Assembly (NCBI GenBank): GCA_016931415.1
Contig: JAFGEW010000006.1
Span: 28,310-92,309 of the forward strand
Length of the DNA: 64,000 bases
From: Verrucomicrobiota bacterium
GTDB taxonomy: Bacteria > Auribacterota > JABMQX01 > JAFGEW01
Reading direction: 5' to 3'
The notes below the pieces were generated by a model, which saw only the letters and a list, made by a program, of their open reading frames with translations, had not been told where the DNA came from and ran no database searches. The position numbers and the translations under genes were made by a program. Every line of letters begins with the position of its first letter. Positions within the stretch are counted from its first letter, which is position 1. This document shows positions 18,441 to 59,348 of this stretch, piece by piece.

Positions 18441-18449
18441 GCTCTTGCC

Positions 18450-19583: not shown

Positions 19584-19626
19584 GCCATGAGTCCTTCATA
19601 CTACGTCGATGTCCAGATCATTCGCT

Positions 19627-22600
19627 CTACCATTGGCTGGACTTCTTCTCCCAATCCGGATCGAAACCCGTTCCCGTCTGGGCCATCTGACGAATGTCGT
19701 TGTAGCACTCGCTCAGGAGGACCGCGGGGACCTCCTCCAGCGGGATGCCGGCGCTCATGCTCCAGTAGTTGACCTTCTCGGTCGTCCGACTGAATGACAG
19801 GGCCAACAACGCCACGAGACAATTGGTCTCGGGCAGACTGTTGCCCGTGAATTCGATGTTGGCTTGGAGCCCCAGTGCGGGAAACTGCTTGGTGTAAAGA
19901 ACGAACACGCCGCCATCCTCGGCTCGCCCGCGGCTGTAGCCGAGCTTGGCGGCCGCCCCGCGCAGCTTGAATGCCTCGATCATGCAGCCTTTGAAGTCTT
20001 CAATCTGGATCCGACGTCGGGTCTCCTCGCTCAAGGCATAAGGAGATCGCCCGAACTGCTGGAAGAGCGCATCCACCTTGTAGTCGGTTAGGTGGATTGT
20101 CCACTTCTGCCCAAGGTCCGGCGACACGTTGCACGTATGCGCCACCCGAACTACGGCATCTGCGGGCACGGTCACCGCTTCATCGTTCACGCCGCTCAGG
20201 GACCTGTCCTCCAGGGGTCGGAAGGTCGTCAACAACACCCCATCCGTGAAAGCTGCCCACACCAATCGCTGGCAACAGCGGCCCACGATTGGGTGGCGGT
20301 GCAGATAGCGGTCCCAGTCGTCGAACACCCATATCCGTTGCGTACACATTGCCTCATACAGGCGGTCCTTCTGCAGACGCAGGACGGCCGCCAACTCCTT
20401 CTTAGCGGCGGAGAAGGCGGCCTTGGCCTTCTTGTACGCCTCCTCCTGCTCGTCCTGGCGCCGGGCTGGAAAGGCCCTGACCGATTTGCCATCAGCCCTG
20501 ACCAGCTCCAAGTCAAGATTGCCGGAAAGGCGCATGGTGAGCTGACGCGGCCCGGCATCAAGCACCGCCTGGCCCGTGTCATCCAGGCCCGCGGTGGGAA
20601 TCGTCCGGTCCGCGAGTTCGTCACGAGTCCAGTTCTTTCGCTGGGCCAGCGCCTGGGCCACGGCATCGGCTTCCTTGCGGATGCCTGCAGTTCGGAAGCG
20701 ATTGGCAACCGACAAGACCAACTGTGTTGCGGAGGCATGCTCCACCCAGGCGAGCATCCGGATCAACGCCTTGCATTGGGCGGCGCGGTAGCCGTACCAG
20801 GTCTTGAGATACTGCTCGACGGGCGCGGACGCACCGGGACCGCAGCAGGCGGCGGCGACCGCCAGCACGCCCCTCTCCTTGACGGCACTCCCGGCAGGTT
20901 GGCGAAGCAGGCCGGGAAGCAGTGTCTGGAAGATGTCCTCTTCCGTTTGTGTCTTGTCGTAGGAGGCCCACATCTTGGCCTGTTGGCGCGCTCTGGCGAT
21001 GGCCTGTTCTCTGGGAATCGGTATCGTGTCCTTTCCGATCCAGTTCTCCAGCACCCATTGGCCGAGACGTTCCGCCTCGTCCTTCCTGAACCATTGCGCG
21101 TACCGCCGAAGCATGGGCGATGGCTCAGGGTCGCCCACCTTGTAGGCCTTCACGATCATCCATGCCAGGATCTCTCGATCTACCATCTGGCCGCTGTCGG
21201 CCCAATGGACCGGAGGAACCAACTGCACTTGGACCCAATCGAGGCCGGCTGGCATGCCTTTGGCCAGGCCGGCCTTGGCTTCGGCGATCAGCCCGGCACG
21301 GTCCAGGAACTCGTCCACCGGGACGGCCATGGCCTCAAGGGCAGACATCATGGCCGCCTTCGCCAGCTCGCTCTTCTCCTTCTTCAGGGCCTTCTGAAGC
21401 TCAGGTACCGCTTGGCGCGCCTTCAGTTCTCCGAGCCATTCGGCGGCACCCGCACGCTCTCCCTGCCGGCCGGACGACAATTCCTGGATGATCCGCTCCT
21501 CCTTGCCGGGGCATCGCTCCAGAGCCTTCTGGGCTTCAAGACGCTCGCTCTTGCCGGCGCCCAACGCCGTTTCCCAGAGCCGCGGCGCCAACTGCGGCGG
21601 GACCTGAGGCATGGCCGCCAGCACCGCATAGGCCTTGGAGCGCCTGATGTTGTACCAGTAGTCGTACTGCCCCTTAGGTGCGAAACACTCCTCGATAAGA
21701 TGAATCCGCTCCCAGAAATACTGCCATGCTTGCGACGGGTCTCTCTGCCAGTAGTTGAGACTGCCGGACAGTGCATCGTGGCCAACCATGTCATCGGAGA
21801 CGCCAACAACGCGCAGCGCGGCCGCAACGTACCTGAGGTCCTGAGTCTGGTGGTGCGAACGGAACCACTCATCCACCAGGTCGTCACCGAGTAGGTTGAA
21901 CTGCCAGACACCGTTTTTGTCCCGGTTGATGTCGCCCGTCAGGCGCATCAACCGCAGCAAGTGAACCAACTGGATGTCAGGGTGCGCGGCGATGCTGCGA
22001 AGCGCTTGCGGATAGCGCAGGTACCTCGCCGCCTGCATCTCGTCGCCGACCCTAAGAGTCTGCATAGTCTGAACAACCCCGTCCAGCCAGCCCCAAGGGG
22101 CCGCCTTAGGCTCGTTACCGTACCATCGCTGCCTTGATTTCTTGGCCTTTTGGCAGGCGGCTATCTGCTGTTGGATTGCCTGCTCGATGGCCTCTCTGAC
22201 ATGCGCACGAAGGGAGTCCGAGACCTTCGGACAGGAATCCACCGCAGGCACCGGCGGGAGCTCGACGGCAGACGATTCCGGAGACGCCGGTGAGGCCGCC
22301 GGCGAAGCAGCGGCGGGGCTCAGGAGTCGCTCGATCGCCTTCTTGACTCTGGGAGAGGTCTCTGCCTCGAGCCGCTGTCGGAGCAGGTCTGCGGAAGGGT
22401 CGCAGCCCAGTTGGTCGGCCAGCGCTAGGGCATGTAGCCTTTCTTCCGGCTGTCCTTCCACGAACTTCCGCAGGATCAGCGGCTTGGCCGCGTCCTTGAA
22501 CTTGACGACCAGGAGATTGGCGGCCTGGCGGACCGTCTTGGCGGAGTCGACAGCGGCATCGACCAGCTCCACCGTAAACGGAGCCATGTCAAGCTGCCAT

Positions 22601-23313
22601 TTGGCCAACAGGGTCAGCGCGTGGACGCGCCGCGGCGCCTCCGCTTGCGTCATTGCCGCTCGGATGACGTCGGGATAGCGGCACACAAGCGCACTCAAAC
22701 CCGGAATCCGCTCGATGAGTGAGTTGTGGAGATACGCATTGCTGCCGTGAGGGTCCATCCACAGGGCGAATTTGGCGAGCAGCGAGGTGTCTTCGCCCGC
22801 CACGGCGAGCATCTGTTCGACCAAGTCAGCCGCCAGCGTCCTCAGCGGTGGCTGTCGATGTCCGTAGTAGTACTGGCCTCCTGTCAATTCTTGAACGTAC
22901 ACATCCAGCCAGACCGGGGCGCCGGGAATCCAATCCAGAAGCAGCTGCTTACGGTCGCGATAGCTGACTGCCTCATATATCTTCGCAAGCCGGACGTAAT
23001 GGACGGGTTCCAGTCCTTCAAGAGCAAGAAGCATGCGTTGGCGTTTTTCGAGGCGTTTGCAGGGATACCGGGGGTTGCAGCAAGCGACCTCAAAATCCAC
23101 GCCCGCGCCTGCAGGCAGCCCCGCCAAGTCCCCGAGCACCGACTCATCCTGGCCGGTTGCCAGATACTGCATCGCTCGTCTGGGCCGGTCGCGGCCGTGA
23201 CGGCTCAGAAAGGCCAGATCCTCCGCGATCTTCGCAGACGCCGAGCCCGTAAGTGGTCTGGTCCCCTGATCGCCATCACGTGGTCCCAGGATCTTTCGAA
23301 GCCAGTCTAGCAT
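19627..23313 (-). CDS. giant alpha-solenoid protein with HEAT-like repeats and C-terminal DUF4132-like domain (yehI/MolR-like)
   Basis: 1228 aa. PBS-lyase/HEAT-like repeat (ERAGAAEWLGELKARQAVPELQKALKK). C-terminal region WVFDDWDRYLHRHPIVGRCCQRLVWAAF...FKGCMIEAFKLRGAAAKLGY matches my recollection of the DUF4132 family. First gene of the operon. Confidence 0.6.
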   Translation of the reverse strand: MLDWLRKILGPRDGDQGTRPLTGSASAKIAEDLAFLSRHGRDRPRRAMQYLATGQDESVLGDLAGLPAGAGVDFEVACCNPRYPCKRLEKRQRMLLALEGLEPVHYVRLAKIYEAVSYRDRKQLLLDWIPGAPVWLDVYVQELTGGQYYYGHRQPPLRTLAADLVEQMLAVAGEDTSLLAKFALWMDPHGSNAYLHNSLIERIPGLSALVCRYPDVIRAAMTQAEAPRRVHALTLLAKWQLDMAPFTVELVDAAVDSAKTVRQAANLLVVKFKDAAKPLILRKFVEGQPEERLHALALADQLGCDPSADLLRQRLEAETSPRVKKAIERLLSPAAASPAASPASPESSAVELPPVPAVDSCPKVSDSLRAHVREAIEQAIQQQIAACQKAKKSRQRWYGNEPKAAPWGWLDGVVQTMQTLRVGDEMQAARYLRYPQALRSIAAHPDIQLVHLLRLMRLTGDINRDKNGVWQFNLLGDDLVDEWFRSHHQTQDLRYVAAALRVVGVSDDMVGHDALSGSLNYWQRDPSQAWQYFWERIHLIEECFAPKGQYDYWYNIRRSKAYAVLAAMPQVPPQLAPRLWETALGAGKSERLEAQKALERCPGKEERIIQELSSGRQGERAGAAEWLGELKARQAVPELQKALKKEKSELAKAAMMSALEAMAVPVDEFLDRAGLIAEAKAGLAKGMPAGLDWVQVQLVPPVHWADSGQMVDREILAWMIVKAYKVGDPEPSPMLRRYAQWFRKDEAERLGQWVLENWIGKDTIPIPREQAIARARQQAKMWASYDKTQTEEDIFQTLLPGLLRQPAGSAVKERGVLAVAAACCGPGASAPVEQYLKTWYGYRAAQCKALIRMLAWVEHASATQLVLSVANRFRTAGIRKEADAVAQALAQRKNWTRDELADRTIPTAGLDDTGQAVLDAGPRQLTMRLSGNLDLELVRADGKSVRAFPARRQDEQEEAYKKAKAAFSAAKKELAAVLRLQKDRLYEAMCTQRIWVFDDWDRYLHRHPIVGRCCQRLVWAAFTDGVLLTTFRPLEDRSLSGVNDEAVTVPADAVVRVAHTCNVSPDLGQKWTIHLTDYKVDALFQQFGRSPYALSEETRRRIQIEDFKGCMIEAFKLRGAAAKLGYSRGRAEDGGVFVLYTKQFPALGLQANIEFTGNSLPETNCLVALLALSFSRTTEKVNYWSMSAGIPLEEVPAVLLSECYNDIRQMAQTGTGFDPDWEKKSSQW

Positions 23314-23379: not shown

Positions 23380-24182
23380 GCTCGTCCGCGCGAGTATAGC
23401 ATGGCCAGGCGGCGTCGTCTCTAGCGCGTTTGTAGTGTGGCGAGGCTCGGGCAGAAGCAGCAGGGCGAGCATGAGGTTTTGGTGCACCGAGCGGCTCGAC
23501 GAACTCGGGCCCGTCTACTTTGTGGGCCGACGGTGTCCACGTCAAGGCCGGGCTCGAGAAAGGCAAGGCGGCCTTGCTCGTGGCGATCACCGGATGCGCC
23601 GACGGACGCAAGCGGCTTGTGGCGCTCGTGGCCGGCCCGTGTGAGTTGGAAGCGACCTGGTCGGCCGTGCTGCGCGATCTGAAGCGGCGCGCGCTTCGCT
23701 GTCCCAAGCTCGTCGAGAGCGACGGCCACTTAGGCATCTGGGCCGGGCTCCGAAACGTCTATCCCGACGCGTCCGAGCGCGGACCTCCGGTCCGATGCGC
23801 TGCTGGAACCATCGGATCCTCAACGTGCTCGACAAGGTGCCAAGCGGTTCCAGGCCCAGGCGAGGCTGCAGCTCAGGCAGATCCGTATGCCGACAGCGAG
23901 CGCGAGGCGTTGCGGCTTTGCGAGCACTTCCAGGCGTCGTGCCACACGCACGAGCTCGACGACGCGGCCGCGCTGCTCGAGCGCGACTGGGACCGTATGG
24001 TGACGTTCTGTCGCTTCCGCCGCGAGCACTGCACGCATCTGCGCACCACCAACGTTGTTGAGTCGCCGTTCGGCGCGCTGCGACTCTGCACCCCGCCTGG
24101 CGGGGCCAAGCGTTTCAAGAATGTCGAGAACGCAGCCGCCGTCATCTTCAAGATGCTCCAGGAGGCCGAGACGGAGTTCTGA
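23380..24182 (+). pseudogene. IS256/Mutator-family transposase remnant (N-terminally truncated, at least 2 frameshifts)
   Basis: Three reading frames carry consecutive transposase segments: RFWCTERLDELGPVYFVG; then HVKAGLEKGKAALLVAITGCADGRKRLVALVAG...LVESDGHLGIWAGLRNVYPDAS; then RCWNHRILNVLDKVP (frame shift); then HLRTTNVVESPFGALRL....AAAVIFKML. No intact ORF and no inverted repeats identified. Confidence 0.7.
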
Positions 24183-26500: not shown

Positions 26501-29014
26501 TCAAGCCTGTTGGGATACTGTATAGGCGGGTTGTTGGCCACTGCCAGAGGAAGCCTGGAAGGGCAGCCATAGAAGTGCTGTTGTCTCCACCGTGATGTCC
26601 GACTTGCGTGGCCGCACCTCTATCCTCTGCAGCTTCATCTGGCTGACGTCGAGTTCATCCTGAATCCGTGCGATCTCCTGATTGAACTCGGCCTCCATCT
26701 TGCCCAACCGTTCCTGAATAGCCAGCCGTGCTTTCGTCGCTTGCTCGACATCGCGCTTCTCTTTCGAGATCTTGCCGGCACGACGCATCGTGGTCGCCGC
26801 ACGGCCGATCGTGCCCGTGCTCACGGTCTTCCGTCCAAACAAGGCGCCGAGCACCGTCGAACCGACAGAGAGGGCCGTGTCCATTTTCTGGCTTGAGACC
26901 TGCGACTGCTCGCGTTGTATCCGCTGATCCGCACGAAGCAGCCGCTCCTGCAACGATGCCAGGCGCGGCGCGTACTTCTTGCGGAGCTTCTCGATTCTTG
27001 CGTCGCGCTCCTCCCGAACCGCAAGAGACACTCGTGACCTGAAATCACCCTCGCTCTCTCCCGGATGCGAGACGGCCTTGGGGTCTCGGCATTCGATCAG
27101 ATCCAGGGCTGCTGTTCGATGGAGGAACTTCGCCAACGAACTACGCCATGAGGCAACATTGTCGCCGCGCAGCGCTCCAGCAGCAGGGGGCTGAAACTGC
27201 GCCTTAGCCATGCCGGTGCTTTCCAGATACGGTTTCAAGTCGGCATGGACGGCCGCGTCTTCCCAGAGTGCCTGAGAGCCGTCCGAAGAGAACGGTGCGC
27301 TGTAGGATCTTGTCTGCCAGACATCCAGCTTTCTCTTCGCATCGACGAAATGGAGATGAACTACGCCGAGGGCGGCGGCACGGTACGTAATCGTGCTGCC
27401 GGTCTGAAACACAGACATGCTCGGCTTGAGATAGAGCTCCTCCATCGTTGAGGGCACGATGGGTTTCTCGGCCTCTGCCTTCTGGGCAGGAGCCAACGCG
27501 GCTGGTTGCGCTGATGGGGTTGGCGCCTGTCGCGGAATGCTGTCCTTGTGCGCCTGCGTCAGAAGGGCGATCTGGGGCAACGTCATGGGGCCTCGGAGAT
27601 AGGACAACGCCCAGCGTGTCTGGAACAACACGAGTTGTTCCTCGTGGACGTTGCGCATCAGGAACACGCGGTTGCCCAGACCGGCGAGTCTTGCCTCGAT
27701 CTCGCCGCGATCGAACGCCGTTCCTTGGCTGAGAAGAGCGCCTTCGAGTCCTTCCATGACACGCGCTTTGTCGCGTTCCGTCTGCAGGCGGCCTATGAGC
27801 CACGTCCCCGCGTTGGCGAGGCCCTTGTAGTCGAGATCAACCGGGTTCTGGGTGGACAGGACAGTGCCCAAGCCGAATGCACGCGCCTGCTTCAGGAGCG
27901 TCAACATGGGGATCTTGGATGGCGGCATGGCTGTGGGAGGGAAGTAGCCGAAGATCTCGTCCATATAGAGCAGGGCGCGCAGGCTCGATGTGCCGGACTG
28001 GACCCGCATCCATGCGACCAGCTCGTTCAGGAGGATAGTCACAAAGAACATGCGCTCGGGATCTGACAGATGTGCAATCGAGAGGATGGAGATCCTTGGC
28101 TTGCCGTCCGTCGTGAAAAGCAGTCGCTGAATGTCCAGTGGCTCGCCTTCCATCCAGGCCGAGAAACCGGGAGAGGCGAGCAGGTTGTTGATCCTCATCG
28201 CCAGAGCCATGCGATCAGCGGCGGGGAAGAATGATTCAATGTCAAAAACACCGACGACATCAAAGGGCGGTTGATGTATCGCGCGAATGATGCCGGCAAT
28301 ATCAAGGCTTTCCCCCTTCTGCCAGGCATGGTGGAGGATGTTCGAGATCAGGATGTGTTCTCGGCTCTTGATGGGGTCGGCACTCAGGCCAACCAAGGCA
28401 AGGAGGCCGGATACAGCCGACATGATCCGGTCACGCAGGGCCGTGGGATCGCCGGCGACTGCTGGAGACGGTGCTGAGAACGAACGCAGCACGCTCAACT
28501 GCAGGCCGGCATTCGCGCCGGGCGTGTAGATGCTTACATCGGCCGCGGCCTTGAGTCGCGCGATTCGTGCCGGATCCTGTCCCCAGTCAGCAAGGCCTCT
28601 GCGCCACAGACCTGCCGTTGACTCGGCATAGGCATCCGGTGTTGCCCCCTTGCGCGCAGCTTCCGCCTCGTCGATCCATGGTCTGAAATCGGACGGCCGC
28701 AGTTCGGGGAATGCGAGTGCGAGATTCGTCAGATCGCCCTTCGGATCGATGCATATCGAGGGGATCCCGTCAATGGCGGCCTCCTCAAGAAGCGTCACAC
28801 ACAAGCCGGTCTTGCCGCTGCCCGTCATCCCGACGCAGACGGCATGCGTCGTGAGATCCTTCGAATCGTACAGGAGGACGTCATCAGTAGTGCGATTGGC
28901 CAGATGGTCATAGACGCGGCCAAGGTAGAACGCCCCAAGTTTCTCGATATCCTGCACAGGTAGTCCTCCATTCTTGCGGGCTGAGCGGGTGTCTGTGTTG
29001 CTCTTGGCTGCCAA
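26501..29014 (-). CDS. P-loop NTPase of the HerA/FtsK superfamily with long C-terminal coiled-coil region
   Basis: 837 aa. Walker A in the context LTTHAVCVGMTGSGKTGLCVTLLEEA...ICIDPKGDL, typical of DUF87/HerA-like ATPases. C-terminal about 250 aa are coiled-coil rich. Confidence 0.65.
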   Translation of the reverse strand: MAAKSNTDTRSARKNGGLPVQDIEKLGAFYLGRVYDHLANRTTDDVLLYDSKDLTTHAVCVGMTGSGKTGLCVTLLEEAAIDGIPSICIDPKGDLTNLALAFPELRPSDFRPWIDEAEAARKGATPDAYAESTAGLWRRGLADWGQDPARIARLKAAADVSIYTPGANAGLQLSVLRSFSAPSPAVAGDPTALRDRIMSAVSGLLALVGLSADPIKSREHILISNILHHAWQKGESLDIAGIIRAIHQPPFDVVGVFDIESFFPAADRMALAMRINNLLASPGFSAWMEGEPLDIQRLLFTTDGKPRISILSIAHLSDPERMFFVTILLNELVAWMRVQSGTSSLRALLYMDEIFGYFPPTAMPPSKIPMLTLLKQARAFGLGTVLSTQNPVDLDYKGLANAGTWLIGRLQTERDKARVMEGLEGALLSQGTAFDRGEIEARLAGLGNRVFLMRNVHEEQLVLFQTRWALSYLRGPMTLPQIALLTQAHKDSIPRQAPTPSAQPAALAPAQKAEAEKPIVPSTMEELYLKPSMSVFQTGSTITYRAAALGVVHLHFVDAKRKLDVWQTRSYSAPFSSDGSQALWEDAAVHADLKPYLESTGMAKAQFQPPAAGALRGDNVASWRSSLAKFLHRTAALDLIECRDPKAVSHPGESEGDFRSRVSLAVREERDARIEKLRKKYAPRLASLQERLLRADQRIQREQSQVSSQKMDTALSVGSTVLGALFGRKTVSTGTIGRAATTMRRAGKISKEKRDVEQATKARLAIQERLGKMEAEFNQEIARIQDELDVSQMKLQRIEVRPRKSDITVETTALLWLPFQASSGSGQQPAYTVSQQA

Positions 29015-50035: not shown

Positions 50036-50506
50036 ATGGTGCCCTGGGGAGGGCTCATGGACACCTACAGGTCACAGCTTATGCCCGGCGAGGTCGTGCG
50101 GCGCGCGTTGCATGCCGCGGGGCTTCGGTGTACGCCGCAGCGTCAGGCCGTCTTCGAGGAGCTTACCCGGCTGGGCGGCCACGTGAGCGCCGACATGCTG
50201 GCCGAACGGTTCCGCCGGCGCCGGGGCCGGGCCGCGCTCTCGCGCGCGACGGTGTACCGCACGCTGGCGCTCCTACAGCAGTGCGGCCTGGTGCGCGAGG
50301 TGTTGTTCACCGAGAGCCACAGCCACTACGAGGCGGTCACCAGCCACGAACACCACGAGCACATGGTGTGCACGGCATGCGGACGGGCCATCGAGTTCGA
50401 TGACTCCGACCTGGAGCGGGTCCTCGCTAAGGCCGCTCGGGCCAAGGACTTCTCTCTCATATCGCACCGCATCGAGATATACGGCCTCTGCGACCGCTGC
50501 CGGTAG
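50036..50506 (+). CDS. Fur-family metalloregulator (His-rich; Fur/Zur/Nur/PerR-like)
   Basis: Winged-helix N-terminus (TPQRQAVFEELTRLGGHVSADML...ATVYRTL), metal sites HSHYEAV..HEHHEHMVCTACG...CDRC. An alternative start at 50057 is possible. Confidence 0.8.
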   Translation: MVPWGGLMDTYRSQLMPGEVVRRALHAAGLRCTPQRQAVFEELTRLGGHVSADMLAERFRRRRGRAALSRATVYRTLALLQQCGLVREVLFTESHSHYEAVTSHEHHEHMVCTACGRAIEFDDSDLERVLAKAARAKDFSLISHRIEIYGLCDRCR

Positions 50507-50666: not shown

Positions 50667-51056
50667 ATGCCGCGGATTCTCATCATCGACGACGACCCGA
50701 GCATTCGGCGCTTGATCACCAAGATTATCAGCACCGCCGACGTCGAGGTCATCGAGGCCTCTGACGGGTCTGAAGGGTACACCTTGGCCGCCGCGAATCC
50801 GCCAGACCTGATCCTGTGCGACGTGATGATGCCAAACCTTGACGGGATCGGGTTCCTGCAGAAGTGGTCGTCGCAGGCGACCGTGCCGTCCGTGCCGATT
50901 GTGATGATCACGTCAGTGACCGAGAAGTCGCGCATCATCGACGCGGTCAAGTACGGCGCCTCGGACTACATCGTCAAGCCGTTCGATCCGCTGGGGGTCC
51001 GGACCAAGATCACCAAGCTTCTCAAGGAACCGGCTACTCCGCCGCCTTCGGCCTGA
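50667..51056 (+). CDS. stand-alone response-regulator receiver (CheY-like)
   Basis: MPRILIIDDD...phospho-acceptor LILCDVMMP...conserved VKPF (Lys). SD GGAGG. Confidence 0.8.
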   Translation: MPRILIIDDDPSIRRLITKIISTADVEVIEASDGSEGYTLAAANPPDLILCDVMMPNLDGIGFLQKWSSQATVPSVPIVMITSVTEKSRIIDAVKYGASDYIVKPFDPLGVRTKITKLLKEPATPPPSA

Positions 51057-51223
51057 CCCTGCCTTGGTGCCGGGGTTCGGCTCCGCCTCGTCACTGGTGT
51101 ACACCAGCTCAAGGATCCGACTGTTTCGTCCTAACACGCGCTTGCCGGCGCGCCGATACTGGAAGCGAGGTCCTTCGTGGGGAGCGTGGCGCAATGCGAC
51201 GCACGCCAGATGGGAGAGGCGTC

Positions 51224-51604
51224 ATGACACGGGTCCTCGTCGTAGATGATGACGAACAGAGCCGCCGGCTCGTTAAGCGGGCTCTCGGCCAGATGCCGGA
51301 GGCCGAGGTGATGGAAGCCCAGGATGGAGAAGAGGGGCTTGACATCGCCCACCAGCGCCGGCCTGACGTCATCCTGCTGGACATCAAAATGCCGAACATG
51401 GACGGCATTGAGTTTCTCAAGCGTTCCTCGCGCGATGAGTCCCTGTCCAACGTTCCAGTCATGATGGTCACCGCGGTGGCCGACCGCCAGCAGGTTATCG
51501 TGTCGGTCTCCTACGGTGCACGCGACTACGTGGTCAAGCCGTTCGATCCCGTCGGGTTGATCAACAAGATCAAGCGACTCCTCGCCGACAGCACCATGCG
51601 TTAG
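51224..51604 (+). CDS. stand-alone response-regulator receiver (CheY-like), second copy
   Basis: MTRVLVVDDDE...VILLDIKMP...VVKPF. SD GGGAGAGG. Longer ORF 50864 is an out-of-frame overlap artefact. Confidence 0.8.
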   Translation: MTRVLVVDDDEQSRRLVKRALGQMPEAEVMEAQDGEEGLDIAHQRRPDVILLDIKMPNMDGIEFLKRSSRDESLSNVPVMMVTAVADRQQVIVSVSYGARDYVVKPFDPVGLINKIKRLLADSTMR

Positions 51605-51911
51605 GGTGGCACGGACACCCCACCCACGACCGCCGGCATGCACACGTCTCCTCCGCCCGCGTCAACACACGGGCAGGACGCCCATGCCACCTCCTTCCGC
51701 GCGCGAAGCGCACGTGGCGCCAAATAAGCGTTTGACACGCGCCCGCTCGTCTGCTAGTAGCTCGTGCAGTCAGCTTGGCACGGCTGTTGCATAAGGTGCG
51801 TCGGGTTTTCCGGCGGCCGGGGTGTCTGATGCGCCCCGAGCTGGTCGGCCAGACTGTTGGGAACCACGGGGCAACCTACGGCCCGGGATCTCGGTCACGG
51901 GGAGGCGGACC

Positions 51912-52655
51912 ATGGCGAAGAAAGCGGCGAAGAAGAAGACGGCCCGGCGCACACCTGCACCGGCGACCAGGCAACTACCGGAGTCCGGGGCGGCCGCGCC
52001 ACCCGTGTCCACGTCTGCAGCGGTGGAGGTCACCTCGCCGCCCACCGTGCCTGAGGGGCTCGACCCACTGCAGTTCATCAAGGAATTCGACAGCCAGCTT
52101 GACGTGTTGCTCGATGTCAAGCAGTCGCTCGAGACCGACTTGGCCGAGGCCCAAGGCGAGATCGCCCGCCAGCGCCACGCCAATGAAGACATGATGCAGC
52201 AGCTCAAGGAGCTCGAGGCCGAGGTCCAGCGCCAAGCCAGCGTGCGCAACGAGCTCGAGTTCCTCCACGGCGAAGCGATCAAGGCGACCGAAGAACTCAA
52301 GCAGCTCCGCGAGCTGCTCGAGGAGAAGCGGACCACCGCCGTGCGCAGGGACGAGCGGATCACCAAGCTCCAGGCCGATGAGCAGGAGATGCGCACCGAG
52401 ATCACCGCGCTCAAAGAGACGCAGTCGCAGATCCGCAACGAGCGGGCCGAGACGGACAGCCACCTCCAGGTAGCCAAGCTCGAGCGCAACGAGCTGCTGC
52501 TCGAGATCCGCAAGCTCCAGGACGTGCTCGCGCGCGACGAGGAGCGCGCCCAGTCGGCCGAGGCCGAGCTCGAGCAAGCGCGCATGGCGCTCTCGAAGCT
52601 CCACGGCTCGTTCGAAGTTTCCAAGCGCAAGGCAGAGCGCATCCTGAAGAAGTAG
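51912..52655 (+). CDS. coiled-coil protein with basic N-terminus (paralog of 54085-54876)
   Basis: Start MAKKAAKKK with GGAGG SD. Conserved segment GLDPLQFIKEFDSQLDVLLDVKQSLETDLAEAQ followed by about 180 aa of heptad-rich coiled coil. Confidence 0.65.
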   Translation: MAKKAAKKKTARRTPAPATRQLPESGAAAPPVSTSAAVEVTSPPTVPEGLDPLQFIKEFDSQLDVLLDVKQSLETDLAEAQGEIARQRHANEDMMQQLKELEAEVQRQASVRNELEFLHGEAIKATEELKQLRELLEEKRTTAVRRDERITKLQADEQEMRTEITALKETQSQIRNERAETDSHLQVAKLERNELLLEIRKLQDVLARDEERAQSAEAELEQARMALSKLHGSFEVSKRKAERILKK

Positions 52656-52697
52656 ACGGGGCCACGGCCGCGGCGGCAAGGCGAGCGCGAGGGTGTC

Positions 52698-53894
52698 ATG
52701 CGTTCCTCCCTTCAGCATTCGGGCGACGAGGCCGGCGAAGCGGTCACGCAGGCCGCGGCACAGGTCGCACAACTCATGCGCCAAAGACGGCGCGAGGCCA
52801 TTCACTCCCGCCAACTGATCGCACGCCTCGGCCGGATTCTCGATCGCCGGTGCGAACAACACGGGCTGACCGGTCTTCTGGGCGGTGACCTGGTACGCGA
52901 GATCACCGGAATACGCCGTCCCAGGCCCCTTCCCGTCACTGAGCCTGTCTCCAGGCCGCCGATGCCGCCACCCACGCCTGAACCGCCTCCAGAGGCCCCT
53001 GAAGCTGCCGCTGAGGAGATCGCGGAGGCTACAGAGATCGGGGCCGTAGTCGAGGCGCGTCAGCACGAAGAGCAGGCGGTCGGACTTGAGGCCCCGCAAG
53101 CTACACAAACCGAAGCCCCGACTGAAGAGGCCCAAGAAGAAGGAGCGGCGCCGGAACCGGAGCCTGCTCCGGTTTCCGAGGATCTCGACGCGGGAATTGT
53201 GAGCGACATCAGAGCGGCAGCGGCTGAAGCTGCTGCGGTCGAGGAGCTTGCCGAGGCGGCCCCGCTCGCCGAGGAAGGCGTCCGCGAGCCGGCGCGTGAA
53301 ACCGTTCGGCCGAGTCGGGCGCCTTTGCGCACCGAGGCCGATGGCGAGACGCCGTTCGAGTTTGTCATCGAGCCGCGTGCGCTCGTCCCCGGACGGATCG
53401 AGTTTGTTCGCAGCTCCGATGAGGTGTTGTTCAACAGGGCCATCGACTCGTTGGGCTCGCGCGACGCGCGCGGCATGCGTGAGGGCCTCCAGATGCTTGG
53501 CCGTATCCCGGGCGAGACCGCCGCGGCCGTATTGCGGAACCTCTACTCGATTGCGCCAGCGCGGTGGCGGTCTGAGGTGGCTCACCAGCTCGTCAATCAC
53601 GCCGCACCGGGCATCAAGGAGTTCTTCCGCGAGGTGCTCGATCGGCATGATGAGCCGGCCGTGGTGCGCGTCGCCGCGCTGCGTGCGCTCTATGCGCGCG
53701 ACAAGGCGCTTGCCACCGAGTATCTGCTCAAGGCGCTTGGCGACGAGAGTGACGATGTGCGCGCGGCGGCGGCCACGTATGTGGGCTGGCTGCGCGAGAA
53801 GCGCGCCATGCCGCTGCTCGAGCAGCTCGTGGGTGACCGCTCGTCGGTCGTGGCCACGGCCGCGTTGCGCGCGGCGGCCTCGATCCGGCTGTGA
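52698..53894 (+). CDS. HEAT/PBS-lyase repeat protein with Pro/Ala/Glu-rich linker
   Basis: C-terminal HEAT-like repeats (VRVAALRALYARDKALATEYLLKALGDESDDVRAAAATYVGWLREKRAMPLLEQL). Confidence 0.65.
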   Translation: MRSSLQHSGDEAGEAVTQAAAQVAQLMRQRRREAIHSRQLIARLGRILDRRCEQHGLTGLLGGDLVREITGIRRPRPLPVTEPVSRPPMPPPTPEPPPEAPEAAAEEIAEATEIGAVVEARQHEEQAVGLEAPQATQTEAPTEEAQEEGAAPEPEPAPVSEDLDAGIVSDIRAAAAEAAAVEELAEAAPLAEEGVREPARETVRPSRAPLRTEADGETPFEFVIEPRALVPGRIEFVRSSDEVLFNRAIDSLGSRDARGMREGLQMLGRIPGETAAAVLRNLYSIAPARWRSEVAHQLVNHAAPGIKEFFREVLDRHDEPAVVRVAALRALYARDKALATEYLLKALGDESDDVRAAAATYVGWLREKRAMPLLEQLVGDRSSVVATAALRAAASIRL

Positions 53895-53916
53895 TCGCTG
53901 CGCGTCCTTCTCGAGT

Positions 53917-53960
53917 GCGCGCCCGCATTCAATGCGCGCCCGCATTCAATGCGCGCCCGG
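53917..53960. repeat. 17-bp direct repeat x2.6 (gcgcgcccgcattcaat) immediately after the HEAT-protein stop
   Basis: Read directly: gcgcgcccgcattcaat gcgcgcccgcattcaat gcgcgcccgg. Confidence 0.8.
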
Positions 53961-54084
53961 CACGGCGCTTGCTGTCCAGTGCGGACAATGCAATACGTTC
54001 TTGTGTACGGGAGCGAGGCCGGTATAATGCAGGTGGGCGGTGCTGCCCGGGTCCGAGGTCTTGAATGCACACGGGAGAGAGCTG

Positions 54085-54876
54085 ATGTACGTTGAGCCCG
54101 AAATCGTCGGCTCGCTGGTGCCGGCAGCCGATGCAGTAAGCCCGGGCGCCGACGCGGCGGGCGACGCCGCCGCGTACGAGTTCGAGCGGACCTCGTCGCA
54201 GATCGCCCTGCGCGATCGCGAGCTGACCGTGGACGTGGATGCGCTCGTCTCGGGCGAGTTCGAGCCGCTCGAGTTCGCCAAAGAGCTCGACACGCAGTTC
54301 GAGCTCATCCTCGACATCAACAAGGCGCTCGAGGCCGACCTGCGCCAGGCGCGCGAGGATCTGCGCGATCTCAAGCGGCGCAACGCCCAGGTCGAGAAAC
54401 TGCTGCGCCAAGCCAAGAACGACATCAAGAAGGGCGGCGACCTCGACGAGAAGCTGACGCGCGAACGGACCGCCTACGAGACGCTGCTCGACCAGATCGA
54501 CGTCACCAAGCAGGACATCGAGCGCGAAGAGCTCGTTATCAGGAAGAAAGACGACAAGATCGGGCGCCTCAACGAAGTGCACGACCGGCTCACGTACGAG
54601 ATCGGCGTGCTCAAGAACAAGATCGAGGGCGTGCGCGCCGAGAAGTCTGAGATCGAGAACCGCCTCCAGACCGTCTACTTCGACCTGCGCGACCTTGAGG
54701 AGCAGAAGAAAGGCGTCGAGACGGCCATCAACGACGTGCGCCATCGCACCAAGGCGACGCGCGACCACATCCTCAAGATCAAGCGCACGCTGTCCAACGT
54801 GCTTACCGCGTTTGCCAACACGCAGAACAAGGCGCGGCTCCAGTTCAGCCGCATCAAGGCCATCGAGCAGAAGTAG
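54085..54876 (+). CDS. coiled-coil protein (paralog of 51912-52655)
   Basis: Shares EPLEFAKELDTQFELILDINKALEADLRQAREDL with the paralog's PLQFIKEFDSQLDVLLDVKQSLETDLAEAQGEI. Remainder is coiled coil. SD GGGAGAG. Confidence 0.65.
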   Translation: MYVEPEIVGSLVPAADAVSPGADAAGDAAAYEFERTSSQIALRDRELTVDVDALVSGEFEPLEFAKELDTQFELILDINKALEADLRQAREDLRDLKRRNAQVEKLLRQAKNDIKKGGDLDEKLTRERTAYETLLDQIDVTKQDIEREELVIRKKDDKIGRLNEVHDRLTYEIGVLKNKIEGVRAEKSEIENRLQTVYFDLRDLEEQKKGVETAINDVRHRTKATRDHILKIKRTLSNVLTAFANTQNKARLQFSRIKAIEQK

Positions 54877-55012: not shown

Positions 55013-56164
55013 CTACTGCGCCGCCTCGGCGGGCTCTTGGTCCGCCGCCTCGGCGGGCTTCTGACCCACCGTCTCGGCGGGCTTCTGACGCGTTGTCTCA
55101 GCGGGCTTGTAGCGCTGGGCCTTGCGCAGGATGCGTTCGGCGTCGCGTTCGCGGTCGAGGCGTTTGAGCGTGCTCGCCAGGTTAAGGTACGCGGTGTAGA
55201 AATCGGTGCGGTACTTGACGGCGCTGCGGAAGGCGGCTTCGGCCCTCTCGTACTCGCCCATGGCGAAGAGGACGTTGCCGAGCTCGTTCCAGACTTGGGC
55301 GTCCTTGGGCATTCTCTTGAGGTAGAAGTTGAACTGATCGATGGAGGCTTGGGGCCGGCCGATGCGCGCGAGCAGACGGGCCTTCTCGGTGTAGGCCTCG
55401 GTGTAGTTGGGTTGGAGCGTGGTGAGCCGCTCAAGCTCCAGGACGGCCTCGTACAGCCGGTCGGAGTTGGCGAGTGCCATGGCGTGCTCGAACCGCACGG
55501 GTAAGTAGCCGGGCCGTTCCTGGAGCGCGCGCTCGAAGGCATCGGCCGCCTCGACGTAGCGACCGAGCTTCATGAGCACGGCCCCCTTGTTCGACAGCAC
55601 GTCGAATGGCGGCGCCCCGAACTGGGCGGCGTTCTCGAGCGATACGAGCGCCAGGTCGTGCTTCCCCATCTGGCTGTAGGCGATGGCGATGTTGACGTGC
55701 GCGGGCGCGTAGCCCACCTCACGCTTGAGCGCGTGCTCGAAGGCGGCGATCGCCTCTTCGACGCGGCCCAGCCGCAGCAGGGCCACGCCGCGGCTGTTCT
55801 GGGCCGGGACGAACCCGGGCGAGACGGCCAATGCGGCCTCGTACGCTTCGAGCTCGCGTTTCTCGTTGCCGAGACGGGCGTAGCAGGCGCCGATTTCGAG
55901 GTAGGGGCGCGGGTTGTCCGGCTCCAGATCGAGGGCGCGTCGGAAGCTGGCTATCGCCTTGTTGTACTGGCCGGCGTCGTAGAGCTCGATGCCGCGTTCG
56001 TAATAGGCGCCGGCTTGACCGAGCGCGTTGATCTGGTCGGGGGTTGGTCCCGGATCGCTTGTCGTGCCGCGGCCGCAGCCGCTGCAGAGCGCGACAAGCG
56101 CGATGAGCATCGAGAAGCAGATCGCTGTGGTGCAGAGACGCAAACGGCGGCGCATATCAGGCAT
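55013..56164 (-). CDS. TPR-repeat lipoprotein with C-terminal 8-aa tandem repeats
   Basis: Lipobox LVALCSGCG after start MPDMRRR. At least 8 TPR units. C-terminus KPAETTRQKPAETVGQKPAEAADQEPAEAAQ. The longer upstream ORF is Arg-rich and unlikely to be coding. Confidence 0.7.
   Translation of the reverse strand: MPDMRRRLRLCTTAICFSMLIALVALCSGCGRGTTSDPGPTPDQINALGQAGAYYERGIELYDAGQYNKAIASFRRALDLEPDNPRPYLEIGACYARLGNEKRELEAYEAALAVSPGFVPAQNSRGVALLRLGRVEEAIAAFEHALKREVGYAPAHVNIAIAYSQMGKHDLALVSLENAAQFGAPPFDVLSNKGAVLMKLGRYVEAADAFERALQERPGYLPVRFEHAMALANSDRLYEAVLELERLTTLQPNYTEAYTEKARLLARIGRPQASIDQFNFYLKRMPKDAQVWNELGNVLFAMGEYERAEAAFRSAVKYRTDFYTAYLNLASTLKRLDRERDAERILRKAQRYKPAETTRQKPAETVGQKPAEAADQEPAEAAQ
55016..55113. 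repeat. about 24-bp tandem repeat x4 encoding the PAExxxQK repeats at the TPR-lipoprotein C-terminus
   Basis: cgcctcggcgggct(t)ctg... units seen four times. Confidence 0.75.
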
Positions 56165-56253
56165 TGGGGCTCGCTCCGGTCTCCGGGCTGGGCCCGGCGT
56201 CGTCCAGAATCCGTTCGCTGGTACGCCCCGCGCGACCCGGGGTCCCAGCGCGT

Positions 56254-57315
56254 CTACGCTTCTGACGAGGAGGCGGCCACGCCGCCGTCGCGCGCGTCGG
56301 CGAGCTGGTCCGCGGTAGGCTTCTCCTCTTGCTTGAGCTTGATGACCTTCTCGCTGAAGACGCCGATCTCGCGGAACCGCTGGTAGCGGCGATCGAGCAG
56401 ATCGTCGGGCCTCACGATGGAAAGCCGGTCGAGGTGCACGATGAGCCGTTCTTTGATCGCGGCGGCCATCTTCTCGGGGTCGTAGTGGCAGCCGCCGAGC
56501 GGCTCGGGCAGGATCTCGTCGACGATGTGCTGCTTGAGCAGGTCCTCGCTCGCGAGTTTCATCGTCGCCGCCGCTTTGGCCATCTGGCCCGCGTCGCGCC
56601 ACAGGATAGCCGCGCAGCCCTCGGGCGTGATGACCGAGTAGTACGCGTGTTGGAGGATGAGCACAACGTCGCCGACGCCGATGCCGATGGCACCGCCCGA
56701 GCAGCCCTCGCCGGTGATGATCACAATCATCGGTGTGCGGACGCGCATCATCTCGCGCAAGTTGTAGGCGATCGCCTGCGAGATGCCGCGCTCCTCGGCC
56801 CCGATGCCGGGGTAGGCGCCGGGCGTGTCGATAAACGCGATGGTCGGAATATGGAACTTCTCGGCCATCTGCATCAGACGCAGCGCCTTCCGGTAGCCCT
56901 CCGGGTGCGGCATGCCGAAGTTGCGCATCGTGCGCTCCTTGGTGTCGCGCCCCTTCTGCGTCGCCACGAGCATGACACGGTGGTGGCCGAGCCGCGCGAT
57001 GCCACCGACCATGGCGCGGTCGTCGGCGAACAGCCGGTCGCCGTGCAGCTCAATCCAGTCGGTCATCATCATTTGGACGAAGTCGAGGAAGTAGGGCCGC
57101 TGGGGGTGGCGGGCGATGAGCACGCGTTCCCAGGCGCCCAGGTTGCCGTAGACGGCCTGCTTTTCCTCGTCGAGCTTCTGTTCGAGCTGCCGGATCTGGT
57201 CGCGCAGGTCGACGGACTGCTCGCGCGTCCAGCCCTTGAGTTCCTCGATCTTCTTCTCGAGCTCGCGCAACGGGCGCTCGAACTCGAGCGGCGTCACTTC
57301 GCGTTGCGTGGCCAT
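56254..57315 (-). CDS. accA: acetyl-CoA carboxylase carboxyltransferase subunit alpha
   Basis: LEFERPLRELEKKIEEL..., IGMPHPEGYRKALRLMQMAEKFHIPTIAFIDTPGAYPG, GEGCSGGA. SD AAGGAGA before ATG at 57315. Confidence 0.9.
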   Translation of the reverse strand: MATQREVTPLEFERPLRELEKKIEELKGWTREQSVDLRDQIRQLEQKLDEEKQAVYGNLGAWERVLIARHPQRPYFLDFVQMMMTDWIELHGDRLFADDRAMVGGIARLGHHRVMLVATQKGRDTKERTMRNFGMPHPEGYRKALRLMQMAEKFHIPTIAFIDTPGAYPGIGAEERGISQAIAYNLREMMRVRTPMIVIITGEGCSGGAIGIGVGDVVLILQHAYYSVITPEGCAAILWRDAGQMAKAAATMKLASEDLLKQHIVDEILPEPLGGCHYDPEKMAAAIKERLIVHLDRLSIVRPDDLLDRRYQRFREIGVFSEKVIKLKQEEKPTADQLADARDGGVAASSSEA

Positions 57316-58523: not shown

Positions 58524-59348
58524 CTAGCTGGACGCGCTCTGCCTGATGTCGCGGACAAACAAGCGAACGTCAGGGTAGCGCTTCTCCAGGTCTTTTTCAA
58601 GCGATAGGAATACGGCGTGCTCCAGGGCTGGGCTCACATTAGGGTTGTAGCGGCGGATCGGCTCGGGCTTGAGGCGGAAGTCAGTGTGGGCGCGCATGAT
58701 CTCCTGCTCGGTGCTGCCCGTGTACGGCAGCCGTAAGGCCAGCACTTCGTATGCCAGGATGCCGAGCGAGTAGATGTCGACGCGCTCGTCGTAGCGGCGC
58801 AGGAGCAATCGCTCGGGGGCGATGTAGCTCGGGCTGCCGCTGATGCGCCTCGAGTAGAGGAACTCGCGGTGCTTCTCGACCGCGAGACTGAAATCGGCCA
58901 GGCGCACGTCCTTGCCGTCTTCGGAGACGAGCACGTTTTCGGGTTTGACATCGCGGTGGATCATGTGTTGGGCGTGGTGCAGGTGGGCGAGCGCCTCGCC
59001 AACGGCGCGCAGGATGGGCACCGGCCGGGTGCGCAGCACCTCGCGCTTCTCGATGATGAAGCGCTTGAGGTTGTCGCCCTCGATGAGCTCGGTGGCCACG
59101 AACGGGGTGTCGCGTGCCTCGCCGATCTCGAAGACGCGGACCACGTTCGGGTGATCGCAGCGCGCCTCGAGCCGGGCGCCGCGCATGAACTGGCGCACGG
59201 CCGTCGGGTTGCCGCGCAGCTCGGGCAGGAGCAGGCGCACCGCGGCGGGCCGGCCCGACGCGGTTGAGCGCGCGCGGTAGACCTCGGAGAGGCTCCCGCG
59301 GTTGATCCGCTCAGTAAGCTCGAATCCGCCAAACGTCATGCCGTACAT
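58524..59348 (-). CDS. Ser/Thr protein kinase-like protein, atypical (possible pseudokinase)
   Basis: HRDVKPENVL catalytic loop and APE present. However the Gly-loop is degenerate (RGSLSEV), the beta3 Lys position reads AAVRLL (Arg), and DFG reads DFS. Confidence 0.75.
   Translation of the reverse strand: MYGMTFGGFELTERINRGSLSEVYRARSTASGRPAAVRLLLPELRGNPTAVRQFMRGARLEARCDHPNVVRVFEIGEARDTPFVATELIEGDNLKRFIIEKREVLRTRPVPILRAVGEALAHLHHAQHMIHRDVKPENVLVSEDGKDVRLADFSLAVEKHREFLYSRRISGSPSYIAPERLLLRRYDERVDIYSLGILAYEVLALRLPYTGSTEQEIMRAHTDFRLKPEPIRRYNPNVSPALEHAVFLSLEKDLEKRYPDVRLFVRDIRQSASS

Follow-up and report, generated by a model that had tools for sequence, protein, structure and literature searches.

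Probable Mad25-like rod proteins and a HEAT-repeat protein in a receiver-linked gene module of uncultured Verrucomicrobiota

In Desulfovibrio magneticus RS-1, Mad23 links magnetosome crystals into subchains, and Mad25, according to genetic evidence, keeps these subchains linear together with Mad26 (PMC12748827). Mad25 interacts strongly with both Mad23 and Mad26 in bacterial two-hybrid (BACTH) assays, and the three proteins are regarded as a subchain-assembly module (PMC12748827). These first functional data on mad23-26 date from 2025 (PMC12748827). The genes are described as common to magnetotactic Desulfobacterota and Nitrospirota (PMC9840458), and published clusters have the arrangement mamK ... 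mad23-mad24-mad25-mad26 (mad28, mad29) (PMC9145555, PMC7951924, PMC9840458). We analyzed a stretch of 64,000 nucleotides (the window) from contig JAFGEW010000006.1 of a Verrucomicrobiota bacterium, in which a module of five genes (positions 50667-54876, + strand) encodes two receivers, a coiled-coil protein (CC1), a HEAT-repeat protein and a second coiled-coil protein (CC2). All conclusions on this module are computational and were drawn from sequence and predicted structure. The genes are, in order:

50667-51056, + strand: CheY1, single-domain receiver of 129 amino acids (aa); Pfam Response_reg, 96.9 bits
51224-51604, + strand: CheY2, single-domain receiver of 126 aa, paralog of CheY1; Pfam Response_reg, 102.9 bits
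51912-52655, + strand: CC1, probable Mad25-like rod protein of 247 aa; hhalign and AlphaFold2 (AF2)
52698-53894, + strand: putative HEAT adaptor of 398 aa; Pfam HEAT_2, 42.5 bits (cutoff 27.7)
54085-54876, + strand: CC2, probable Mad25-like rod protein of 263 aa, paralog of CC1; hhalign

A first-pass annotation, made from the DNA letters, had described two tandem stand-alone receivers followed by a coiled-coil, a HEAT-repeat and a second coiled-coil protein; all five genes were found on the + strand within the limits it gave. Each is preceded by a GGAG-type ribosome-binding site 5-8 nt upstream. The receivers are indeed single-domain proteins with no output domain: their lengths and their Response_reg scores, which are above the curated threshold, agree with this, and Pfam finds the receiver domain alone in both CheY1 and CheY2. 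The Pro/Ala/Glu-rich linker described for the HEAT protein is also present, residues 76-215 being 59% Ala/Glu/Pro.

Word-indexed homolog searches stopped at a narrow clade (60% identity or more), whereas a full HMMER profile search reached further. Among 5.8 billion clustered proteins, CC1 had 16 relatives, CC2 20 and the HEAT protein seven; all were from metagenomes, and the relatives of the rods were all at least 60% identical. CC1 is itself identical to a database entry named 'hypothetical protein JW889_00600' from a Verrucomicrobia metagenome-assembled genome. The profile combining CC1 and CC2, run with HMMER against 1.84 billion representative proteins, gave 68 matches, and about two dozen of the matched proteins, 200-350 aa in length, matched from head to tail. 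Three of the end-to-end matches are located in magnetosome gene clusters (loci L016, L017 and L018). The order of genes in L016 and L017 is a MamK-family actin (NCBIfam scores of 473 and 470 bits, cutoff 400), coiled-coil genes, a HEAT_2 protein, a gene of ~200 aa, the profile match, and a coiled-coil gene of ~195 aa. L017 additionally contains a Volactin/Mad28-like actin and a ParA-like gene, and L018 harbors MamE-type (magnetochrome-trypsin-PDZ), MamB/M-type, MamQ-type and TauE genes. Because the order in these loci is that of the published mamK...mad23-24-25-26 clusters, the rod matches are at the Mad25 position, and the HEAT genes at the Mad23 position.

Coiled coils attract spurious matches; we therefore ran reversed-sequence controls for these comparisons. 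In hhalign the CC1 family matched the Mad25-position proteins at 98.1% (E=7.6e-14, 194 collinear columns; reversed control 1.7%) and the CC2 family matched them at 97.1% (E=6.5e-11, 211 columns; reversed control 10%). The worst false positive across the reversed controls reached 49%, with E=1.7e-4. Within each magnetosome locus the profile picked the Mad25-position protein (37-102 bits), the other coiled-coil proteins remaining below 16 bits, and the comparisons of CC1 and CC2 with the proteins at the Mad26, Mad24 and Mad20 positions were not significant. The identity of CC1 and CC2 to Mad25 proper is about 16-21%. An alignment of 33 sequences (A5) is gapless over ~190 residues, save for one insertion of up to ~73 residues in three sequences, and its head and tail are conserved, as is a break ~50 residues in. 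The head motif of the family (h-x-x-h-I-x-x-h-E-x-Q-L...N/K-x-x-L-E-x-D-L) and its tail motif (A-h...K/Q-x-K-A) are both present, with a rod of ~180-190 residues between them. The RS-1 primer VR131-F, which is part of the upstream homology arm of the mad26 deletion and presumably lies inside mad25, encodes IKSMEG, the core of the head motif.

These profile comparisons point to CC1 and CC2 belonging to a Mad25-like family, and we consider this membership very probable. We file the rods as Mad25-like and not as Mad25, because the magnetosome-cluster context is absent: no mam gene and none of mad24, mad26, mad28 and mad29 was found in the scanned parts of the window or in the related contigs. The first-pass annotation had concluded that the module matches no named system. 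The remote-homology search it proposed for the coiled-coil head domain, carried out here on the rods as profile-profile tests, led to the Mad25-like family, so that this conclusion gives way to a link with Mad25 that is remote but statistically solid, and to a weaker link with Mad23. With this the strongest claim of novelty falls, since the rods match a known family with a defined function, an outcome that the first-pass annotation had itself named as refuting.

Other assignments of the rods were less productive. Curated collections contain no family for them; Pfam, NCBIfam and PADLOC returned sub-threshold coiled-coil noise (SMC, Rad50, JetC, PUMA_CC and ATG16), and a profile search of the PDB with the rod family recovered generic coiled coils alone, leaving the head motif uncovered. 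Homologs carry the JGI name 'chromosome segregation ATPase'; TIGR02168 scores 22.7 and 31.4 bits where the cutoff is 567, the match being confined to the coiled coil. No bactofilin (DUF583) and no receiver-coiled-coil fusion was detected by Pfam at E<=0.1, the receivers being separate genes. The Mad26 tail TAFKETQNR and the CC2 tail TAFANTQNK are alike, but the likeness is anecdotal, the comparison with Mad26 being not significant; a Mad26-like nature of the short coiled-coil genes that follow the rods in other loci was not demonstrable.

That CC1 and CC2 are paralogs with a common head segment, as had been proposed, is borne out, and they are also collinear along the whole rod. BLASTP aligned the two with 21% identity over 146 aa (E=2e-10), and their families match at 97.6% in hhalign. 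Since the alignment of 24 CC1 and CC2 sequences has no gaps from the head motif to the tail motif, the paralogy spans the whole rod and not just the head segment. Both motifs are invariant in the CC2 family. For CC1, AF2 predicts a disordered basic tail (residues 1-50, beginning MAKKAAKKK) and one continuous helix (residues 52-246, predicted local confidence (pLDDT) 85). A rod helix of ~195 residues is ~29 nm long, and the disordered tail comprises ~50-60 residues.

The two rod families are of opposite charge. Among 13 members of the CC1 family, the net charge is +3 to +10 for the tail and -2 to -11 for the rod; among 11 members of the CC2 family it is -4 to -12 for the tail and +3 to +11 for the rod. 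The lysine-rich basic tail MAKKAAKKKTARR is conserved in CC1. Given that the charges of rods and tails are opposite and conserved, CC1 and CC2 most likely pair or co-assemble. In one relative (L005:4126-5211), the HEAT protein is without the conserved N-terminal helix and instead has a lysine-rich tail, MAKKAAKKKTAKKK, like that of CC1; the basic tail thus seems to be a movable module within the system. In a database protein of 124 aa (P0045), the CC2 head (to ...LDINKAL) runs directly into the final two repeats of the HEAT protein; this is either a misassembly or a natural deletion/fusion of the CC2 and HEAT genes.

For the HEAT protein, AF2 predicts an N-terminal helix (residues 10-53), a disordered acidic Pro/Ala/Glu linker (77-220) and a five-repeat solenoid (239-397, pLDDT 84-95). 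The closest folds to the solenoid in Foldseek are alphaRep/PBS-type HEAT proteins. In hhalign, the HEAT family matched the Mad23-position proteins at 98% (E=1.5e-13, 163 collinear columns, 28% identity). An attempt to separate Mad23 from generic HEAT proteins by score failed; because consensus alphaRep proteins score as high or higher, the score alone is no proof of a specific relation to Mad23. The seven HEAT domains encoded next to Mad25-like genes align collinearly, with 'LGW' invariant and 'LRG(L/I)Y' present in most. Membership of the HEAT protein in a Mad23-like subfamily is likely but formally inconclusive, and is suggested by gene context and the 'LGW'/'LRG(L/I)Y' signature, not by score. 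The NCBI record gives this protein as 231 aa (P0038), with the N-terminal part at 52698-53200 outside it. Relatives conserve the first 60 residues as well as two linker motifs; this supports the 398-aa model, and the public annotation is probably truncated.

The module was found in four GTDB species genomes labelled uncultured bacterium or Verrucomicrobiota. The order CC1-HEAT-CC2 is kept in every contig of this clade, as is the entire neighborhood. In four divergent subfamilies, namely the window clade, the magnetosome clusters, L019 and L020, a HEAT_2 gene is no more than a few genes away from the rod. The pairing of HEAT gene and rod (also seen across L016-L020) thus persists across a divergence to ~20% identity, and the scattering of homologs that the first-pass annotation had named as evidence against its reading was not observed. 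We think it probable that the rods and the HEAT protein work together.

In L019, the HEAT and rod genes occur with a ParA-like gene, beside RuvB. The order in L020 is PilZ, HEAT, a gene of 393 aa, MglA, rod and a coiled-coil gene; this MglA matches solved structures (Myxococcus xanthus MglA) at E=1e-64. L020 (731-6487) and L013 (230-3160) have a conserved set consisting of PilZ, a HEAT protein (711 aa) having an N-terminal coiled coil as well as an acidic tail, the 393-aa gene, MglA, the rod and a short coiled-coil gene, which may be an uncharacterized MglA polarity module. L019 (2895-6161) and L015 (784-6760) represent a subfamily that pairs the rod with a ParA-like ATPase. In L019 the adjacent HEAT protein is of the 'LGW' type, and there is an apparent short second Mad25-like paralog at 5670-6161; in L015, two Volactin/Mad28-like actin genes precede sensor kinases. 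The first-pass annotation had likened the layout to cytoskeletal, polarity or motility modules. Membership in the Mad25-like family and the relatives beside MglA, ParA-like and actin-like genes favor the cytoskeletal, polarity or positioning part of this suggestion; its motility part found no counterpart in motility or pilus genes near the module.

The closest outgroup of the two rods is the protein type of P0044. Loci with this type (L012 and L021-L026) contain no HEAT or REC (receiver) gene within 10 kb. The gene (e.g., L021:9956-10852) is located between a divergent PpiC/SurA-like gene and a gene of 367-471 aa, after which come DUF4912 and a GH57 branching enzyme. The hypersaline-sediment samples that yielded the window clade also yielded several copies of this type, which is thus maybe a third paralog of the lineage. 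The downstream gene in L012 looked ParA/MinD-like by eye; no family supported this assignment.

Compared with the RS-1 Mad23-Mad25-Mad26 module (Russell et al. 2025, PMC12748827), the locus has in common a Mad25-family rod of ~190 residues whose head and tail motifs are the same, a HEAT neighbor and a second coiled coil. In both, no component has a transmembrane segment, the HEAT protein combines an N-terminal helix or coiled coil with an acidic low-complexity stretch, and the predicted form of the rods is a long single helix, which has also been described for Mad25 and Mad26. In contrast to RS-1, the locus lies outside a magnetosome cluster, and MamK, Mad28, Mad29, Mad24 and mam genes are not nearby; the second rod is a full Mad25-like paralog and not Mad26; the order is rod-HEAT-rod with receivers directly upstream; and the host belongs to an uncultured Verrucomicrobiota clade. 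The HEAT and rod pairs with MglA (L020, L013) or a ParA-like protein (L019, L015) have the same rod family and the same 'LGW' HEAT subtype, and they too are outside recognizable magnetosome clusters. They have a shorter second coiled-coil gene after the rod, and PilZ or histidine kinases and response regulators nearby; however, they carry an NTPase (the MglA GTPase or a ParA-like ATPase), where the window module has receivers instead. Our literature search found no experimental characterization of these MglA- or ParA-linked pairs.

More distant parallels are the FrzS and AglZ proteins of Myxococcus, in which a receiver is fused to a coiled coil and which have links to cell polarity; the receiver of FrzS is a pseudo-receiver. 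The combination of a receiver domain with a long coiled coil and the polarity link are similar, a likeness that comes from general knowledge and not from sequence, whereas the receivers here are separate and apparently fully phosphorylatable, and motility genes are not near the module. Crescentin and other coiled-coil-rich proteins likewise form long uninterrupted rods with conserved ends, and crescentin was a weak PDB match (E=4e-4). However, that match is to generic coiled coil alone, the head and tail motifs are not common to both, and the rods here are half the length. The RS-1 authors also liken Mad25 to crescentin (supplement, PMC12748827).

CheY1 and CheY2 are 46% identical (E=7e-43). 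By inspection of the translations, the phosphorylation residues are intact in both (D8/D9, D52, T82 and K104 in CheY1; D8/D9, D53, T83 and K105 in CheY2). They do not score as chemotaxis CheY proper (PRK10610, 67.5 and 87.2 bits against a cutoff of 189), and che genes are not nearby. The first-pass annotation had noted that there is no kinase nearby, which holds for histidine kinases: near the module, none turned up among the open reading frames and the genes annotated by Pfam, nor did the syntenic contigs contain one; farther from the module, the window was scanned in part. The partner histidine kinase must therefore be encoded elsewhere. The sole kinase noticed is a Ser/Thr kinase (58524-59348, - strand).

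Receivers are located directly upstream of CC1 in every member of the clade; their number and architecture differ. Two single receivers are present in the window, L006 and L008, three in L009 and L010, two proteins with the architecture REC-REC-X in L002 and L004, and one such protein in L005 and L011 (examples: L002:5690-7948, L005:1917-3044 and L011:299-1462). CheY1 is the ortholog of the first REC in the long REC-REC-X proteins of L002 and L005 (58% identity). Remnants of the extra receiver domains of the relatives were not found in the spacers of the window. The REC-REC-X proteins, of ~370 aa, consist of a REC, a degenerate second REC and a conserved C-terminal domain X of ~115 aa (RDKYYFYDRDD...VDL...), for which no family was detected and the PDB profile search was empty. 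A by-eye likeness of domain X to STAS was dropped after hhalign against a true STAS domain gave a probability of 0.5%. Downstream of its Mad26-position gene, L016 has a REC and a STAS gene.

The spacers of the module contain the following promoter-like elements and repeat:

51722-51760, + strand: sigma-70-like promoter box 5' of CC1, AAATAAGCGTTTGACAC, with TTGACA at 51732-51737, a 17-nt spacer and TAGTAG at 51755-51760; consensus match
51776-51790, + strand: sigma-54-type -24/-12 element TGGCACGGCTGTTGC, 122 nt upstream of the CC1 start; consensus match
53916-53959, HEAT-CC2 spacer: 17-bp perfect tandem repeat, TGCGCGCCCGCATTCAA x2.6; Tandem Repeats Finder score 88, 100% matches
53959-53972, + strand: sigma-54-like element GGCACGGCGCTTGC 5' of CC2; relaxed match, one of four GGCAY-N5-TTGC in the window (1.35 expected)
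54001-54028, + strand: sigma-70-like promoter of CC2, with TTGTGT, a 16-nt spacer and TATAAT

Upstream of CC1, AAGCGTTTGACAC is exact in the window, L001 and L006-L010, and TTTGACAC is invariant in eight of eight lineages of alignment A9. The TGGCACGGCTGTTGC site is the only exact TGGCAC-N5-TTGC in the 64 kb, where 0.13 are expected, and the same element is also found upstream of CC1 in L006-L010. The element of CC2 is kept as GGCA(C/T)-N5-TTGC in the window, L006 and L008-L010; the TGCGCGCCCGCATTCAA repeat that abuts it is absent from relatives (alignment A10). The TATAAT of CC2 is invariant in all eight lineages aligned (A10), and CC2 is therefore probably its own transcription unit. Its start is 190 bp from the end of the HEAT gene, and 42 bp separate the HEAT gene from the end of CC1. 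In L012 and L021-L026, the P0044-type paralog likewise has sigma-54-type elements on both sides. The presence of these elements at CC1, CC2 and the P0044-type genes suggests that the rod genes may share an enhancer-dependent regulon. A scan of the region with Rfam and for simple promoters and terminators returned nothing useful.

Because of the homology to Mad25 and the recurring adjacency of HEAT genes, we consider a scaffold equivalent to that of RS-1 to be the most likely function. More specifically, the module may encode a phospho-regulated scaffold of the Mad23/Mad25 type, with rods, a HEAT adaptor and control by receivers, that positions some cargo; we regard the chances of this full reading as evenly balanced. 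CC1 and CC2 would be rods of fixed length, each consisting of a disordered tail and a single ~29-nm helix with the conserved motifs at its ends, and would pair or co-assemble through their complementary charges. The five-repeat solenoid of the HEAT protein would bind the rods, as Mad23 binds Mad25 in the two-hybrid assay, and its N-terminal helix and long acidic linker could reach cargo or further rods. The receivers, always adjacent and variable, would be the regulatory input of the scaffold: phosphorylated by an unlinked histidine kinase, they might switch its assembly or localization through protein-protein contacts. Expression of CC1-HEAT and of CC2 is perhaps additionally sigma-54-dependent, to judge from the consensus elements. 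Nothing in the window points to magnetosomes as the cargo.

Several observations weigh against the phospho-regulated scaffold. The CC1-HEAT-CC2 arrangement exists in no more than a single narrow clade (60% identity or more), and synteny within this clade is weak evidence of function because the whole neighborhood is syntenic. The closest outgroup rod, the P0044 type (E=4e-24 to CC1/CC2), stands alone. The reference 'Mad25' proteins were assigned by gene order and not by a named or curated sequence, and the same HEAT profile that gives 33-46 bits with Mad23-position proteins gives 28-83 bits with artificial alphaRep proteins. The intergenic gaps within the module are 168, 308, 42 and 190 bp, with apparently separate promoters, and no NTPase partner (actin-like, ParA-like or MglA) adjoins the module.

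Some of these points would also fit five genes that are neighbors by descent and form no functional module, the rods and the HEAT protein acting independently and the receivers belonging to an unrelated pathway. Synteny restricted to close relatives in which everything is syntenic, the sizeable gaps with their separate promoter-like boxes, the variation of the receiver genes from one to three, with or without extra domains, and the solitary P0044-type rod all agree with this explanation. However, HEAT and Mad25-like genes are adjacent in four subfamilies at ~20% identity with otherwise unrelated neighbors, the charges of CC1 and CC2 rods and tails are complementary in all 24 sequences, similar sigma-54-like elements precede both rod genes, and CC1-HEAT-CC2 is invariant while the flanking receivers change; we consider mere neighborhood improbable. 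Even less probable is that the organism is magnetotactic, or makes a related chain of minerals or organelles, and that the locus is part of a dispersed magnetosome gene set encoding true equivalents of Mad25 and Mad23. The homology of the rods to Mad25 and the resemblance of the HEAT protein to Mad23 would be expected in this case; some mad genes are outside the main cluster in Nitrospirota (PMC9840458), a Fur-family regulator is directly upstream (50036-50506), and metagenomics keeps adding phyla with magnetotactic bacteria (PMC12748827). Yet no mam-type gene (MamK, MamE/magnetochrome, MamB/M or MamQ) was found in the scanned parts of the window or in related contigs (up to 37 kb), conserved housekeeping genes (V-ATPase, HypDE, AccA, Pss/Psd) surround the locus, and the rods are as distant from Mad25 proper as are the MglA- and ParA-linked groups outside clusters. 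Our literature search found no pairing of 'magnetosome gene cluster' with Verrucomicrobiota.

The lysine-rich AKKA tail of CC1 could alternatively bind DNA, with SMC-like rods organizing the nucleoid or chromosome. The conservation of MAKKAAKKKTARR and the similar tail on the L005 HEAT protein are compatible with this role, as are the weak matches to SMC coiled-coil regions and the ParA-like partners in related loci, and the JGI name suggests it. We nevertheless find such an organizer very unlikely: the SMC matches are 23-31 bits against cutoffs of 567-729 and concern coiled coil alone, with no ATPase head, hinge or Walker motif; AF2 predicts one plain helix; the CC2 tail is acidic and not basic; and a basic tail could equally bind acidic lipids or an acidic partner. 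We give similarly little credence to a FrzS/AglZ-type regulator of motility or polarity split into separate genes, whose receivers would dock on the coiled coils to control pili or gliding. Receivers do occur with coiled-coil proteins here, and one rod subfamily is beside a true MglA GTPase and a PilZ protein. However, the receivers are encoded separately and their phosphorylation sites are intact, genes for pili, gliding, MglA or MglB were seen neither close to the module in the window nor in related contigs, and the rods share no Pfam or NCBIfam family with FrzS or AglZ.

The module is flanked upstream by genes for V-ATPase, HypD/E and Fur, and downstream by genes for a TPR lipoprotein, AccA, a LysM-YkuD transpeptidase, the Ser/Thr kinase and Pss/Psd. 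The Fur-family gene follows hypD/hypE directly 5' of the receivers, and this position is kept in all relatives. The TPR protein gene (55013-56602, - strand) is convergent to CC2 and adjoins it in all relatives; a 24-bp tandem repeat in three copies (55019-55089) encodes the PAE-rich C-terminal repeat of this protein. The PADLOC scan for anti-phage defence gave weak coiled-coil and HEAT background only, with no match to a defence model. Elsewhere in the window, five genes on the - strand (12626-23313) encode a SWIM zinc-finger protein (738 aa), a VWA/CoxE protein, a DUF5682 protein (832 aa), an AAA_5 MoxR-like ATPase and a DUF4132 protein with HEAT repeats (1228 aa), and look like one multi-gene system. 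A fragment of a Mutator-family transposase (23520-24182) and a gene for an 837-aa protein with weak HerA/DUF87 matches (26501-29014) suggest that a small patch, mobile or related to defence, separates the efflux genes from the V-ATPase operon.

Our literature search found no link of Mad23 or Mad25 to non-magnetotactic organisms or to Verrucomicrobiota. What appears to be new here is a putative Mad23/Mad25-type scaffold outside a magnetosome cluster, with duplicated rods, and with phospho-receivers in place of an NTPase. We tentatively entertain, as possible though not favored, a broader reading: the HEAT adaptor and Mad25-type rod may be an old, general-purpose positioning scaffold that is coupled to MamK/Mad28/Mad29, to MglA, to ParA-like ATPases or, as here, to a phosphorelay. 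The magnetosome Mad chain proteins would then have been recruited from a wider cytoskeletal family, and the window module would organize a non-magnetic cargo or the cell pole upon a signal. For annotation, the comparison gives meaning to proteins labelled 'hypothetical' or, wrongly, 'chromosome segregation ATPase'. If the rod and HEAT pair operates outside magnetosome clusters, these loci would be natural experiments on how a GTPase, an ATPase, actin-like filaments or a phosphorelay can each drive one scaffold, and would define a new class of bacterial cytoskeletal adaptors, consisting of fixed 29-nm rods with conserved ends and a HEAT reader. The organization of magnetosome chains would then be traceable to a broader scaffold family.

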